The translations under genes were made by a program, and so were the position numbers. A stretch of DNA of 35,446 bases from positions 1 through 35,446 of the forward strand of contig DAOTXG010000013.1 of the NCBI GenBank assembly GCA_034435515.1, in the 5' to 3' direction. Source of the DNA: Anaerolineales bacterium. Its GTDB lineage: Bacteria; Chloroflexota; Anaerolineae; Anaerolineales; UBA6663. The notes under the pieces are model-generated. The model ran no database searches and was not told the origin of the DNA. It saw nothing but the letters and a program-made list of their open reading frames with translations. Positions 8,990 to 33,083 of this stretch are shown piece after piece (positions within the stretch are counted from its first letter, which is position 1; each line of letters starts with the position of its first letter).

Positions 8990-9105
8990 TCAGGTAAGTG
9001 GTAAGTAGTAAGTGGTAATTAGAGTGGGGATTATGCCATAAATAATCGGAGGTCGGAAAGACGTATCCGACCTCCGATTTACCAATCACCAATCCCCAAT
9101 TACCG
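8990..9105. repeat. intergenic repeat block: (GGTAAGT)-type heptamers, a 14-bp perfect hairpin, CCAAT-type heptamers
   Basis: ggtaagtggtaagtagtaagtggtaatt, then hairpin AATCGGAGGTCGGA-8 nt-TCCGACCTCCGATT (9044-9079), then accaatcaccaatccccaattacc. Confidence 0.7.
9044..9079 (-). terminator. probable intrinsic terminator of the permease gene
   Basis: Perfect 14-bp stem. On the minus-strand RNA it is followed by AUUAUUUAUGG. Lies 29 nt after the permease stop. Confidence 0.5.
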
Positions 9106-10766: not shown

Positions 10767-10957
10767 AGTTTCTCCTCCGGCAAAAGCAAATGACACACGG
10801 CCAACAAGGACCAGCCACAAACGTTTGCAGACAGTTAGAGCAAATCCGGCCCCAGACACCTCCTATGGATGTTCGTTGCGGTAAAGAGTTCGCGGTGAAA
10901 TACGAGGCAAGTGTAGTCCTTCTGCCTGAAAATGCAAATCGGCGAAAGAAGACGAGG

Positions 10958-11185
10958 CTACCCCAGCAGCGCCTCGACGCTCTCCCGAAACACGCGCGTG
11001 TGATAATCAATGTCCTCCGCGGTCGTCGCGGGCGAAATGAGCGCCATGTTGTGAAAAGGCGTGAGCAGGATGCCCCGGTTGAGCGCGGCGAGGTGTTTCT
11101 TACCGGCCAGCGGGCCGTGTGGGAACGAGATGGCACAGAGCGGCTTGGACGCAGGTACATGGCGCGTTTCTAACGCAAATTGCAA
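10958..11185 (-). pseudogene. 3'-terminal remnant of a class III (GSA-aminomutase-like) aminotransferase gene
   Basis: Only the last 60 or so residues of the family are present (...LNRGILLTPFHNMALISPATTAEDIDYHTRVFRESVEALLG*). There is no upstream coding continuation; the sequence runs into AT-richer promoter-like DNA. Confidence 0.55.
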
Positions 11186-11219
11186 AACGTTAGAATTGGT
11201 CTCAACTGCGAGAGGGGAG

Positions 11220-11247
11220 ATTATAGGCCCGGTTTGGGCGCATTCAA
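11220..11247 (-). promoter_or_regulatory. sigma70-like promoter (minus strand): TTGAAT-16 nt-TATAAT
   Basis: The reverse complement of 11242-11247 is TTGAAT and of 11220-11225 is TATAAT. It points toward the aminotransferase remnant and permease. An 8-bp hairpin TTCTAACG/CGTTAGAA (about 11169-11197) lies in the leader. Confidence 0.45.
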
Positions 11248-11301
11248 AGCGCGATGGACAACTTCAACGAAATTCATCCGGGAAAGATATGCAAAAGTAT
11301 A

Positions 11302-11331
11302 TTGACTTTCATGCAAGATGAGTCTTATACT
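11302..11331 (+). promoter_or_regulatory. sigma70-like promoter (plus strand): TTGACT-18 nt-TATACT
   Basis: TTGACT at 11302-11307 and TATACT at 11326-11331. It is back-to-back with the minus-strand promoter. Near-consensus AT-rich hexamers are rare in this G+C-rich DNA. Confidence 0.5.
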
Positions 11332-11337
11332 AGGACA

Positions 11338-11745
11338 TAGAAGCAAAGCACCTTCAACAATCAGGCAGCGGAGGGGTTATCCGGCTCCAGCAATAGAGCA
11401 GCGCGAGGTATGGCGGCACAGTCCCGACCAGATCAGCGCGGAGAAGAATTAGAGGAAAAGAAACAGAGCCACACTCAACTTCTCCCCGGTGAAGCGGACC
11501 TCGCCTGGACGAAAGTGCTGGTGTTTCCACCCGGCGGCAAGAACTGGCAGCACGACCGCCAGACACTACTCCAAGGGTGAGCCGATAACCGGACCCAGGC
11601 CATGGCCCAATCCCCAGTGGACCAGCCGTGCCCTAGGAGAGAGGTACCTCTCCACCGACGAAGTTGCCTATTTATTATACGGTTGTTGAAAGCGGCTTTG
11701 CTGAGGAGCCGGATTACGTACACGAATCCGGCTCCGTTTCTTTTT
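11338..11745 (+). ncRNA. candidate structured non-coding RNA of about 400 nt, class unknown
   Basis: Bounded by the promoter at 11302-11331 and the terminator at 11705-11745. No ORF has a usable SD, and codon style is atypical. A long-range 12-bp helix joins 11375-11387 and 11579-11590. Local hairpins lie at 11440-11485 and 11636-11653. Confidence 0.4.
11705..11745 (+). terminator. rho-independent terminator (plus strand)
   Basis: GGAGCCGGATT-acgtacacg-AATCCGGCTCC followed by GTTTCTTTTT. Confidence 0.6.
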
Positions 11746-11890
11746 ATAGGTATCCAGAAAAGTCTTTTCCCAAATTCTGCTGTCAACGAATACTAAACGA
11801 ATGGCAGCACGAGCGCGTATTTGTTTACGCGAAGCGGTTGATCATTCGTTGACAGAGAGGCGTGAGAAAATTTACCTGGATCGCTATACT
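11744..11890 (-). repeat. nested-inverted-repeat element, copy 1 (flanks in minus orientation relative to copy 2)
   Basis: IR1 is CTGTCAACGAAT (11780-11791) / ATTCGTTGACAG (11844-11855). The flanks match the reverse complement of the flanks of 32725-32880. Confidence 0.75.
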
Positions 11891-11904
11891 TCGAACTCCC
11901 GGTT

Positions 11905-13176
11905 TCAACTGATGGGCCACGAATTCCCGTTCCGCCTCTCCCGCAATACCGCCTCGTACAACTGGATAATCTTCTCCGCGATCAGCGGCCAGGCGTAGCC
12001 GCGGGCGTAAGCGGCGGCCTGCTCGCCCAACTCGCGCCGGAGCAGCGGATCGGTGAGGACCTGGCACATCCGGTCGGCCAGGGTTTCTGGATCACGGTCG
12101 GGAACGTGAAAGCCGGTCTCGCCGTCGCGCACCAGGACGGCCAGGCCGCCCACCTCCGCGGCGATCACCGGCGTGCCGCACGCCATCGCCTCCAAAGCCA
12201 CCATCCCGAACGATTCGTAATGCGAGGGCATAATGACCGCTTCCGCCGCCGCGTAATAATCGGGAAGCGCATCCTGATCCTGCTGCCCCAGGAATGTCAC
12301 CAGGTCGGCCACCCCCAACTCCTCCCGCAAGTCTTTGAGCCGCTGCATTTCCAGGTTCTTCTGGGCCGCCGTCTCGTCCGGGTCGCCGCCGATGATGACC
12401 AGGCACATCTTTTCGCACTCGCATACTCCCCGGTCGCGCAGGAGCGCCACCGCCCGCAAGAGCGTTTCCAGCCCCTTGAGCGGCTCGATGCGCCCCACAA
12501 ACAGCAGCAACTGCAGGTCGGGGTTCACGCCCAGGCGCGCCTTAGCCTCGGCCCGCGAGCGGGGGTAGAAAAGGCCCAGGTCCACCCCGGGCGGAATAAC
12601 CGTAACCTTACGCACGTCTGCGCGGTAAAGCCATTGGAGTTGCGCTTCCTCCACGGGCGTCGCCGCGATGATCCGATCGGCGTCCTGGAGCAGCTCTGTC
12701 TCGACGCGCAGCCGCAGATCGCTCTCGCGCTCGTAAGGATGCTGGGCCACGCGGTTTTTCATGTGGCCGAGGGTATGGAACATTTGAACGAACGGCGCCC
12801 CCCAGGCAACCCGCAGGCTCCGTGCGGCCACCCCCGAGAGCCAGTAATGAGAATGCATCAGGTCATACCGCTCATCGCAGGCCCGCGCGAACTCGCGCAC
12901 CCCGCCCACAAATTCGGGCACGTGCCCATACAGGATTTCCTTTGGCAGCGGCGCCTCCGGCCCCGCCGGGATGTGGATCACCCGGTTGCCATAACCGAGG
13001 TCCTCCTTGACGTGCGGCTGGTGTTCGTCCTGGGAGCGGGTGAACACGTCCACGTGGAAGCCCTGCCGCCCGAGCTCACGCGTCAGGTCGCGGACGTAGA
13101 CGTTCATCCCGCCCGTATCTTTGCCGCCCAGGGTCGCCAGGGGGCAGGTGTGAAAGGAAAGCATGGCAATGCGCAT
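11905..13176 (-). CDS. GT4 family glycosyltransferase, MshA-like
   Basis: MRIAMLSFHTCPLATLGGKDTGGMNVYVRDLTRELGRQGFHVDVFTR... and C-terminal ESFGMVALEAMACGTPVIA are typical of the retaining GT-B GT4 family. Confidence 0.85.
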   Translation of the reverse strand: MRIAMLSFHTCPLATLGGKDTGGMNVYVRDLTRELGRQGFHVDVFTRSQDEHQPHVKEDLGYGNRVIHIPAGPEAPLPKEILYGHVPEFVGGVREFARACDERYDLMHSHYWLSGVAARSLRVAWGAPFVQMFHTLGHMKNRVAQHPYERESDLRLRVETELLQDADRIIAATPVEEAQLQWLYRADVRKVTVIPPGVDLGLFYPRSRAEAKARLGVNPDLQLLLFVGRIEPLKGLETLLRAVALLRDRGVCECEKMCLVIIGGDPDETAAQKNLEMQRLKDLREELGVADLVTFLGQQDQDALPDYYAAAEAVIMPSHYESFGMVALEAMACGTPVIAAEVGGLAVLVRDGETGFHVPDRDPETLADRMCQVLTDPLLRRELGEQAAAYARGYAWPLIAEKIIQLYEAVLRERRNGNSWPIS

Positions 13177-16430: not shown

Positions 16431-16507
16431 CCTCGCGGGACTTCCCCAACGGCACTGATGGAGAATACGTTATATTCATGTGCGCAATCTAAAAGAGGGG
16501 AGGGGCA

Positions 16508-16969
16508 TCAAGAACGCAGCTGGAACGCCGCGTAAAATTCATCCCGTTCCAACCAGGCGAGGCCGAAATCGCCGTGCGAGACCTGAACGGGGGCGTTGGG
16601 AAAAGCCGGGTCGTTGAGATAAACGCTCTGGTCGTCCAGCCCGACGACGAGAAGGGCATGGCCGGTCACCCGATCCCAATAGGGCAGTTCGCTGGTATCA
16701 ACAAAGGCTATGCAGGGACGGTTATTCTGTAAATGTTCACGAAGTTCATCTAAAGTTCCCTGCTTGTAGACCACGGTGATGCCCAACTGCTCCAGGTTGC
16801 GTACTCGCGAGGAGAACGCGCCAAACCACTGCACTTCCAGCAATTTCAAGAGCTGATCGTAGTCAGCCGCAATGCCAAGGTAGGCCAGCGCCATCGCCGC
16901 GCAGGCCGCTAGGCATTCGCCATCTTGACGTTGCTCAATATGGGGAACAGGCAAATAGGTTGAAGTCAT
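16508..16969 (-). CDS. stand-alone C39-like cysteine peptidase domain protein
   Basis: ATG at 16969 with GAGG 9 nt upstream. VPHIEQRQDGECLAACAAMALAYLG supplies the Q and catalytic C. GHALLVVGLDD supplies the H, and VYLNDPA is also present. G+C is lower than in the neighbours by eye. Confidence 0.65.
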   Translation of the reverse strand: MTSTYLPVPHIEQRQDGECLAACAAMALAYLGIAADYDQLLKLLEVQWFGAFSSRVRNLEQLGITVVYKQGTLDELREHLQNNRPCIAFVDTSELPYWDRVTGHALLVVGLDDQSVYLNDPAFPNAPVQVSHGDFGLAWLERDEFYAAFQLRS

Positions 16970-16980
16970 AAACCATGACC

Positions 16981-17451
16981 TCAATCCGGCAGCTTGGCAG
17001 GGGCCAGCCGCACTTTCCCGTCTTCGGCAATAACTAATTTTCGCGCGGGCGGCACGTCTTTCGCCAAGTATTCAGCGGGCGTCTCGCGCTTCGGTTCGTA
17101 GGGAGGCACGAGCGGCTTCAGTTGCATTGCGCCCGCTATCAGCGCCGTTTTGCGTTCTGTCAAGTCTTGCGTCTCACCGGTCTCGACGTCTACATCCACG
17201 GTGCCTACGACCCCTACCGGGCCAGTATGGGGAAAACTCAATTCTACTGGCACGCGCCACATCGCACGGGTTCTCATCACAACCAGGGTCGGCTTGTGCG
17301 CGCTCATTTGGATGGTGACCTCGTTCAGCAACCAGCGGTTCACCATCCGCCGCGCTCCTTCTGCCGTCACTTTGATTTCAAACGCGCGCGGAAGGGCAAT
17401 TTCCACCCGCCCCTTTTCTGGCAGGGTGATGTTTTCGAGGATAATGTCCAT
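16981..17451 (-). CDS. hypothetical protein, possible PepSY-like fold
   Basis: 156-aa ORF immediately upstream of the C39-like gene. The segment WRVPVELSFPHTGPVGVVGTVDVDVETGE resembles the PepSY-type strand-turn pattern, but this is a weak inference. Confidence 0.5.
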   Translation of the reverse strand: MDIILENITLPEKGRVEIALPRAFEIKVTAEGARRMVNRWLLNEVTIQMSAHKPTLVVMRTRAMWRVPVELSFPHTGPVGVVGTVDVDVETGETQDLTERKTALIAGAMQLKPLVPPYEPKRETPAEYLAKDVPPARKLVIAEDGKVRLAPAKLPD

Positions 17452-17547
17452 GGTAACCTTCCTCTGTCCTTAAGCGCATTGAGTATAGCACAGAGAACTT
17501 GAATCTATGAGCACGCCAATACCCTCAGCCGCCCCTCAGCCGCGCAT

Positions 17548-17576
17548 TTGACTCTCCGCCGTAAATAATCTAAATT
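17548..17576 (+). promoter_or_regulatory. sigma70-like promoter TTGACT-17 nt-TAAATT
   Basis: TTGACT at 17548-17553 and TAAATT at 17571-17576, about 45 nt upstream of the comD-like ATG. Confidence 0.4.
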
Positions 17577-24366: not shown

Positions 24367-24450
24367 TGGATTACCTCAGATACGGCGGGAAAGTAGGCAC
24401 GCAATTATATGAAGGTTGACTCGTGTTATCTGTATCGCTCACGTTGACTC

Positions 24451-24693
24451 TCAATGAAAGCCGAAACACTTTCCGAAAAAAGAAGTGCGCTGCCCTAAAA
24501 ATGCTTTCGCACCTTCATTTCCTCTATACGCCAAAACACACAAGAGCGTTGTCCATATGGCGCGAGCTATTACTAAAAAGCTTAGCCGTGTTAAGAGAGC
24601 AACAATAAGAGTGATAGCCTCTAGCCCGAGAACAACTGCTACGATCGCTACCACAATCTTCCGTCCACGAGATGCTCCCTTAATCATCCTCAC
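24451..24693 (-). CDS. small hydrophobic protein (2-3 predicted TM segments), low G+C
   Basis: GTG start with GGAGAGG 4 nt upstream. Very hydrophobic (IVVAIVAVVLGLEAITLIVALL..., IWTTLLCVLAY). No recognisable family. Confidence 0.35.
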   Translation of the reverse strand: MRMIKGASRGRKIVVAIVAVVLGLEAITLIVALLTRLSFLVIARAIWTTLLCVLAYRGNEGAKAFLGQRTSFFGKCFGFH

Positions 24694-24756
24694 TCATCCT
24701 CTCCAAAGTATGCAGGGCTTTTCCATTTTCCCTTGACTGAAAATGCCTAATGTGGC

Positions 24757-24833
24757 GTGGGAGCGGATCCGCTTCGCGTCCGCGATAGGCCGCCTGATTT
24801 GCCATAAGGGTCGCGGTTACAAACCGCTCCCAC
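24757..24833. repeat. REP-like palindromic element, copy 3
   Basis: GTGGGAGCGG (24757-24766) ... GTCGCGGTTACAAACCGCTCCCAC (ends 24833). Confidence 0.6.
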
Positions 24834-24880
24834 GACTTTGGAAAAGCCCTGCCAAAGTATGCTTCTCCGCTTCCCGGCCT

Positions 24881-25600
24881 TTATCTGCCGAGATATGCTT
24901 TTCTCATAAGTTCGTTATTCAACAAATTTTCAGCTTTGTCGGCCAATACGACCCGCCCCGTCTGCAGCACGTACCCCCGGTGGGCGATGGAGAGCGCCAT
25001 GGCGGCGTTCTGCTCGACGACGAAGACCGTCACGCCCTGCTGGTTGATCTGCTGGATGATCTCAAAGTTCTGCTCGACCAGGAGGGGGGCCAGCCCCATC
25101 GAGGGTTCGTCCATCAGCAGGAGTTTGGGGCGGGCCATGAGGGCGCGGCCCATCGCCAGCATTTGCTGTTCGCCGCCGCTGAGCGTGCCGCCCGCCTGGT
25201 TGAGCCGCTGCTTCAGGCGCGGGAAGAGCGCCAGCACTCTGTCCAGGTCTTCGCGGATGCCCGCTGTGTCGCGCCGCAGGTAGGCGCCCATTTGCAGGTT
25301 CTCCAGCACGCTCATCGCGCCGAAGATGCGGCGGTTCTCCGGCACCACCGCCATGCCGCGCTCGACCCGATAAGAAGTCGGCCTGTCCTGCACCGCCTCG
25401 CCGCGGAACTCCACCACGCCGCTCGCCGGCTTCACGATGCCGAGAATCGTCTTGAGCGTCGTGGACTTGCCCGAGGCGTTGCCGCCGAGCAGGCAGACAA
25501 TCTCGCCCTGGTAAATCTCAAGGCTCACCTCTTGCAGGATGTGAATCGGGCCGTAGAAGGTGTTGATCTGCTTGAGACGGAGGAGCGGTGATTGATCCAT
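24881..25600 (-). CDS. livF: branched-chain amino acid ABC transporter ATP-binding protein LivF
   Basis: Walker A GGNASGKST, signature LSGGEQQML, Walker B LLLMDEPS. Confidence 0.9.
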   Translation of the reverse strand: MDQSPLLRLKQINTFYGPIHILQEVSLEIYQGEIVCLLGGNASGKSTTLKTILGIVKPASGVVEFRGEAVQDRPTSYRVERGMAVVPENRRIFGAMSVLENLQMGAYLRRDTAGIREDLDRVLALFPRLKQRLNQAGGTLSGGEQQMLAMGRALMARPKLLLMDEPSMGLAPLLVEQNFEIIQQINQQGVTVFVVEQNAAMALSIAHRGYVLQTGRVVLADKAENLLNNELMRKAYLGR

Positions 25601-32724: not shown

Positions 32725-32880
32725 GACTATAGCTATCCAGGTAAATTTTTTCGCGCCGCTCTGTCAACGAATATGAAACGAATAAACGAATATGCTCTCG
32801 CGCCGCCATTCGTTTACGCGAAGCGGTTGATCATTCGTTGACAGCAGAACCTTGAAAAGGACTTTTCTGGACACCGATAA
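32725..32880 (+). repeat. nested-inverted-repeat element, copy 2
   Basis: IR1 is CTGTCAACGAAT (32761-32772) / ATTCGTTGACAG (32833-32844). The flanks match the reverse complement of the flanks of 11744-11890. Confidence 0.75.
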
Positions 32881-33083
32881 CGCGAAGCGGTCACTACGCC
32901 TTTCGCCGTTTCTTCTTATCCGTTTATCCGTTTCGTATCCGTTGACGCCGAGTCAGAATCTTAACCCCCATAGGGCATCCCAGGGACATTAGCCGAAAGG
33001 GCCGATCCGGACTAGAATCAGTCCTGTCAGTGTAGTAAGTCGGCGGGGCCATGCCCCAGTCGGTTAGGTCGAGCGCCAGCGCA

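Follow-up and report, generated by a model that had tools for sequence, protein, structure and literature searches.

A candidate strain-specific non-coding RNA gene of about 405 nt in patchwork DNA of an uncultured Anaerolineales bacterium

A gap without genes in a 35-kb contig from an uncultured Anaerolineales bacterium (Chloroflexota) may hold an independently transcribed, strain-specific non-coding RNA (ncRNA) gene of about 405 nt, on the plus strand at approximately 11339-11746. We put the probability of this reading at about 0.4, and we consider it nearly as likely that the same DNA is a non-functional relic of rearrangement. We favor the ncRNA gene because the best terminator in the contig lies on the same strand as a near-consensus promoter, itself a rare signal here, because the ends of a long closing helix coincide with the predicted ends of the transcript, and because there is no coding signal. 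Counted against it are the absence of a homologue everywhere we searched, a sister genome that does not have the unit, and the 954-nt patch around it, which also contains a pseudogene fragment and a MITE.

In what follows, the window is the whole stretch of DNA that was analysed, 35,446 nt in length. Its sequence recurs in two JGI metagenomes, 3300022563 and 3300009444 (99.99% and 100% identical), and the region of the unit is 100% identical between the assemblies of the two samples, which are the only other copies that we saw. Since these independent assemblies share the junction, it is not an assembly chimera. The gap that houses the candidate unit is 719 nt long (11186-11904) and has a GC content of 0.51, compared with about 0.64. 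There is no plus-strand gene downstream of the terminator, where a MITE-like repeat is followed by a convergent family-4 glycosyltransferase (GT) gene. The coordinates of all features are collected in Table 1.

Table 1. Features of the candidate unit and its surroundings, in window coordinates.
Feature	Position	Strand	Remarks
Sigma-70-type promoter TTGACT-18-TATACT	11302-11331	plus	score 10/12
Divergent promoter TTGAAT-16-TATAAT	11247-11220	minus	score 10/12; back-to-back with the plus-strand promoter
Predicted non-coding transcript, ~405 nt	11339-11746	plus	bounded by promoter and terminator
Closing helix, 5' arm	11342-11369	plus	AGCAAAGC..CUU CAACAAUC AGGCAGC
Closing helix, 3' arm	11663-11702	plus	11-nt bulge AUUUAUUAUAC; ends 2 nt 5' of the terminator
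Segment a, GGUUAUCCGGCUC	11375-11387	plus	pairs with 11579-11590 or with the terminator 5' arm
Segment b, GAGCCGAUAACC	11579-11590	plus	3' partner of segment a
Hairpin GGAGAAG/CUUCUCC, 7 bp	11440-11446/11479-11485	plus	predicted probability 1.0
A-rich loop segment AAAAGAAACAGAGCC	11456-11470	plus	complementary to the terminator 3' arm and U-tail, 11730-11744
Hairpin AGG-CAUGGC...GCCGUG-CCU	11597-11634	plus	predicted probability 0.85-0.97
Hairpin GGAGAG/CUCUCC	11636-11641/11648-11653	plus	predicted probability 0.41
Intrinsic terminator	11705-11746	plus	stem, UACA loop, then tail GUUUCUUUUUA
56-aa ORF	11410-11580		between promoter and terminator
66-aa ORF			ends 16 nt 5' of the terminator
MITE-like palindromic repeat, ~140 nt	11747-11886	.	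TA/TA flanks; directly 3' of the terminator tail
Family-4 glycosyltransferase (GT), mshA-like	11905-13176	minus	right flank; convergent to the unit
75-aa ORF, then amino-acid permease operon	left flank of the gap	minus	
Truncated class-III aminotransferase pseudogene, C-terminal end (the 75-aa ORF)	10958-11185	minus	PDB 5ykt residues 407-456, E 8e-12

The first-pass annotation of this DNA had described a transcription unit running from a near-consensus promoter to a strong intrinsic terminator with an 11-bp stem, with a second promoter back-to-back on the minus strand. All of these signals are present, and the reading as a transcription unit stood up to our tests: promoter, same-strand terminator, lack of coding potential and non-random folding are found together. 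Promoter-like sites that score at least 10/12 are rare in this DNA. There are just four in the whole 35 kb, and two of them are the promoter of the unit and its minus-strand partner, which reads into the pseudogene fragment and, beyond it, the permease operon. Assuming the usual gap of about 7 nt, transcription from the plus-strand promoter is predicted to start near A11339/G11340.

The arms of the terminator stem are GGAGCCGGAUU (11705-11715) and AAUCCGGCUCC (11725-11735), with one bulged A, and two inner C-G pairs beyond these 11 bp bring the stem to 13 bp. The hairpin has a dG of -22.5 kcal/mol as RNA and a z-score of -5.6 as DNA, and its U-tract can also be given as GUUUCUUUUU. In a custom scan it was the best clean hairpin-plus-T-run in the window. 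A standard terminator scan skipped it because the loop was counted as 9 nt. The minus strand has no T-run, so the terminator is unidirectional and works for the plus strand only.

The predicted fold of the unit is not what would be expected by chance. The 408-nt stretch 11338-11745 has an MFE of -159.8 kcal/mol and a fold z of -4.7, the most extreme among 52 windows of 408 nt across the contig, the remainder of which reach -3.2 at most. The dominant long-range helix in the predicted ensemble is a closing helix that was absent from the first-pass annotation. It has 26 bp (8+3+8+7), of which the three long segments are predicted at a probability of about 1.0 and the 3-bp segment at 0.61, and it starts approximately 3 nt past the predicted start site and stops 2 nt before the terminator. 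As a duplex it reaches -34.6 kcal/mol, compared with -17.6 +/- 3.4 kcal/mol for shuffled sequences (reached by 0 of 1000), and nowhere else in the unit is there as good a partner for the 5' end of the transcript as 11663-11702.

Inside the closing helix, the picture is less uniform. A 12-bp helix between segments a and b, with C11382 bulged, had been proposed as the main long-range pairing; it does occur in the MFE structure, but its pair probability is about 0.3, so it belongs to a minority of the ensemble. The small hairpins that had been listed with it were recovered at 11440-11485 and 11636-11653, at the probabilities in Table 1, but a third one, GGCGG/CCGCC, is not used by the MFE. The hairpin at 11440-11485 closes a 32-nt A-rich region (11447-11478), in which an inner stem GAG/CUC (11452-11454/11474-11476) has a probability of 0.89.

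If the unit is an ncRNA gene, we would expect it to work as follows. RNA polymerase with the housekeeping sigma factor would start at TTGACT-18-TATACT and stop at the 13-bp hairpin plus U-tract. Once the segment 11663-11702 had been made, it would pair with the first 30 nt of the transcript to give the closing helix, which would abut the terminator hairpin and leave both ends of the RNA locked in duplex. Duplex-locked ends are an arrangement of many stable bacterial RNAs. The interior of approximately 290 nt would form several arms, the firm ones being 11440-11485 and 11597-11634, and the A-rich loop at 11456-11470 could capture the 3' U-tail. Such an RNA would presumably act in trans, in a regulatory or protein-binding role. 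It is probable that the unit either came in with the patchwork DNA linking the GT and the permease operon in this lineage or originated within it.

The unit is an orphan in every collection that we searched. The first-pass annotation had suggested a comparison with all Rfam models and a search of related genomes. For the first, we found no match to a known family in the whole window with Rfam 15 at the gathering score, and only chance-level matches over 11100-11950 at E up to 10. One of these aligned a model of group II domain V with the hairpin of the terminator (E 0.37). We rejected it, since the bulged strand is the wrong one, a GNRA loop is missing and the stem is followed by a U-tract. 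There is no tRNA or tmRNA either. We also rejected a CsrB-like sponge, as the 10 GGA motifs compare with about 8 expected and are not enriched. A REP-like repeat family was rejected as well, since ATCCGGCTCC, the 10-mer found at 11379-11388 and in the 3' arm of the terminator, is not enriched in the window or in the related loci.

The search for homologues in related genomes came back empty. These related loci comprise 36 around GTDB orthologues of the GT, plus the closest relatives of the permease and GT from ENA, JGI and NCBI. With nhmmer the unit is absent from all 52 related Anaerolineales loci, and queries made from the unit, from the MITE and from the upstream region returned only the identical source contigs and the conserved permease leader. 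BLASTN of the unit against phage and plasmid records found no homologue. For scans of large collections, we wrote the frame translations of the unit as degenerate 24-nt patterns, six of them at once. Twelve such patterns found no relative in JGI metagenome contigs, in a scan that did not return the source contig itself, and the pattern scan of IMG/VR found none either. In the literature we found only general comparative-genomics surveys of RNAs, which cover families already in Rfam.

The neighborhood of the GT changes from one relative to the next. Its orthologues in GTDB come exclusively from Anaerolineales MAGs, and at these 36 loci (up to 82% amino-acid identity) unrelated genes follow the GT and nhmmer did not detect the unit. 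Next to the GT in most of the 20 loci that we examined are a gene of ~360 aa and a gene of ~420 aa; we take the latter to be histidyl-tRNA synthetase in L003, L004 and L012, judging by eye from the translation rather than from a family search. With tblastn, the neighbor proteins of the relatives left no decayed remnants in the unit region of the window.

The closest relative is a sister genome, present in ENA ERZ27254865/795/861 and JGI 3300025324, with 96% amino-acid identity in the GT and 95% in the permease. Here a 1406-aa TPR/peptidase gene comes after the GT, and ThiS and other genes come before the permease. Its nucleotide sequence matches the window at 94% identity as far as 11903 on the GT side and at 90.5% as far as 10866 on the permease side, where a remnant of the leader extends to 10948. 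The sister genome does not have the patch at either flank, so 10949-11902 (954 nt) is lineage-specific. A second strain-specific insertion in the contig is a 1.1-kb segment at 16432-17553, which is missing from the sister genome (L045/L046) and carries a pair of small ORFs on the minus strand; one of them has a Peptidase_C39_2 domain.

The 954-nt patch is made up of the truncated pseudogene, the divergent promoters with the RNA unit, and the MITE-like element. The pseudogene is the 75-aa ORF of the left flank, for which we found no Pfam match and no record by exact look-up. This aminotransferase fragment marks the junction of a rearrangement, and the minus-strand promoter (11247-11220) now reads across it into the permease operon.

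These observations would also fit a non-functional patchwork, which, as noted, we consider nearly as likely as an ncRNA gene. The 954-nt segment would then be debris of the event, a rearrangement or deletion, by which the GT and the permease operon became neighbors. Its promoter and terminator would be left over from lost genes, possibly as an orphaned 5' leader or 3' end, and the structure would come from inverted duplications of a terminator-like motif at the level of DNA, with no selection on RNA. Similarity to the sister ends exactly at 11903 and at ~10948, a truncated aminotransferase and a repeated MITE lie within the patch, the neighborhoods on both sides differ in every relative examined, and no search found a homologue. 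Five partial copies of one motif, GGTTATCCGGCTCC / GGCTCCGTTTCTTTT, occur in both orientations. Only 3 of the 122 pairs in the MFE structure are G.U, the others being Watson-Crick, and the minus strand has a fold z of -4.4, close to that of the plus strand. This is the pattern expected from inverted duplication of DNA, and the palindromic symmetry could thus reflect the DNA no less than an RNA. The closing helix does have a small edge on the plus strand from two G.U pairs (-34.6 vs -30.8 kcal/mol on the minus strand). What speaks against a relic is that decay is unlikely to retain a near-consensus promoter together with the best terminator of the contig, and would not be expected to leave a 26-bp helix whose ends fall within 2-3 nt of the predicted start and of the terminator base. 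The 100% identity across the assemblies of two samples also speaks against it, though it has little weight at such divergence.

The MITE-like element raises the question of whether the unit itself is mobile. A second copy of the element lies at ~32730-32872 in the window and shares 74% identity with the first in inverted orientation and 71% in direct orientation. The element has terminal inverted repeats TAGGTATCCAG/CTGGATCGCTA and an inner inverted repeat CTGTCAACGAAT/ATTCGTTGACAG, folds into a hairpin over its full length (DNA z -3.9), and was not found in the 52 related loci. Before it was inserted, the terminator tail was 16 nt from the stop codon of the GT. Beside the second copy, at 32903-32921, the motif CGCCGTTTCTTCTTATCC resembles the terminator tail CTCCGTTTCTTTTTATAGG beside the first.

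Like MITEs and REP-like repeats, the unit has inverted repeats at both ends, a lower GC content and a strain-specific location, and a genuine MITE adjoins it. It could therefore be the remnant of a non-autonomous mobile element, in which the arms of the closing helix would be terminal inverted repeats approximately 360 bp apart (imperfect repeats of 28-40 nt, 11342-11369 and 11663-11702). We consider this improbable. The adjacent MITE has two copies and TA flanks, but the unit is single copy in the data searched (neither the 35-kb window nor the 52 related loci has a second one) and shows no target-site duplication, as its flanks ...CATAGA| and |GAGGAG share no direct repeat. In addition, the repeats match the transcription signals and not an insertion scar.

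A different proposal of the first-pass annotation was a switch, based on a 10-mer ATCCGGCUCC that 11379-11388 has in common with the 3' arm of the terminator (11726-11735). The shared 10-mer is there, and the complementarity behind the proposal is real and not random: 11376-11388 is complementary to the terminator 5' arm (11705-11717) at 12 of 13 positions, which none of 2000 shuffles reached. The A-rich loop segment is likewise complementary to 11730-11744 at 14 of 15 positions (0 of 2000 shuffles), and it contains a perfect complement to the 9-nt U-tail alone (6 of 2000). In a conditional terminator, a factor or ligand would shift 11376-11388 onto the terminator 5' arm, and read-through would run through the MITE and antisense into the GT, from which the terminator is separated by the MITE alone, with the gap having been 16 nt before the insertion.

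The energetics do not support a working terminator/antiterminator switch. With 11376-11388 forced onto the 5' arm, the fold reaches only -142.5 kcal/mol and so lies 17.3 kcal/mol above the MFE; the pairing is topologically crossed with the closing helix, leaving linkers of just 2 nt (3' side) and 6 nt (5' side). In nascent folds that end at 11704 or 11722, the closing helix has already formed and the terminator arm is free, so by these models the RNA should terminate by default. A strong terminator with an upstream segment complementary to its 5' arm is also what attenuation leaders and riboswitches have; here, however, the competing segment is 330 nt upstream, and there is neither a recognisable aptamer (no known one came up in the Rfam searches) nor a plus-strand gene downstream. 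Read-through could run only antisense into the GT, and in the sister genome the arrangement beside the GT is missing. We regard regulation of this kind as unlikely, on a par with a mobile element.

A bolder version, which we hold to be slightly less probable still, is a self-clamping riboregulator of a new kind. It would rest on three complementarities: the closing helix, 11376-11388 with the terminator 5' arm, and 11456-11470 with the 3' arm and U-tail, which together would bring the RNA's own terminator under control. A cellular signal would toggle two states, a closed, terminated and stable RNA and an open one with read-through antisense into the mshA-like GT.

The unit had been described as having no credible ORF, and we agree. 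Its ORFs have a GC3 of 0.46-0.64, compared with 0.76-0.85 in the neighboring genes, and none has a properly spaced SD when examined by eye. Six-frame translations of 11190-11904 had no match in 5.8 billion protein clusters, and those of the unit region had none in Pfam. When we compared the 56-aa ORF with 1.84 billion representatives, without a word filter, it had two matches, both to proteins with 13-aa tandem repeats, which we take as artefacts. The JGI annotation calls no gene within the unit. A small protein gene is the least likely of the readings and hardly credible: ORFs such as those of 56 aa and 66 aa do exist between promoter and terminator, but these candidates have a GC3 of 0.61-0.64 against 0.82-0.85 in real genes, a GAGG a mere 1 nt from the ATG, no homologues beyond the tandem-repeat matches and no JGI gene call. 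The unit also resembles hok-type type I toxin mRNAs, which are ~400 nt long and whose 5' and 3' ends pair to close the molecule. However, it has no short hydrophobic ORF; all of its ORFs are hydrophilic or rich in Arg/Pro.

Returning to the ncRNA gene, the unit is best filed as a candidate stand-alone bacterial ncRNA gene and not as a new class of RNA. It shares with such genes a sigma-70-type promoter of its own, a Rho-independent terminator on the same strand at a distance of a few hundred nt, a lack of coding potential and a stable fold. Scans for a promoter plus a terminator have reportedly found stand-alone ncRNA genes, and such pairs in empty intergenic DNA are said to have been productive for small RNA genes in E. 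coli. Unlike these genes, the unit is long at ~405 nt, its transcript is a predicted one, and it is not conserved even where the flanks have 90-94% nucleotide identity. Compared with 6S RNA and Ms1, it has the same pairing of its 5' and 3' ends in a long closing stem, would also be an independent gene and has a highly stable fold, but it does not match the Rfam models of either, even at E up to 10. It also differs from 6S in that its interior is multi-branched, without a rod and central bubble, and in that it is twice as long.

If it is transcribed, the unit would be a very young, lineage-specific ncRNA at a dated rearrangement junction in an uncultured lineage of Chloroflexota. Since the sister genome lacks it, with flanks that are 90-94% identical in nucleotides, it could serve as a small case study of the birth of an RNA gene from patchwork DNA. 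As a candidate, it does not open a long-standing question. In practical terms, strong signals of promoter, terminator and fold can occur in strain-specific, junk-like DNA, and we advise that calls of this sort be accompanied by a check of synteny with close relatives.

We noted some other features in the contig. There is another gap without genes at 24367-24880 (514 nt, GC 0.49), whose sequence is unrelated to the RNA unit. The 408-nt window 24501-24908, which overlaps it, has a fold z of about -3.1, and its minus strand may carry a small hydrophobic ORF. At 10866-10948 on the minus strand is the leader 5' of the amino-acid permease / DAO-GCV_T operon. It has no Rfam match, and it is conserved in nucleotide sequence in relatives (L039 5582-5694 and L040-L043 5782-5826) despite different upstream genes; it may be a cis-regulatory element. 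Within the same operon, after the stop of the permease and before the DAO/GCV_T gene begins, there is a clean 12-bp hairpin at ~9046-9090 on the minus strand (TCGGAGGTCGGA...TCCGACCTCCGA, then TTATTTAT), which may be an internal terminator or an attenuator.
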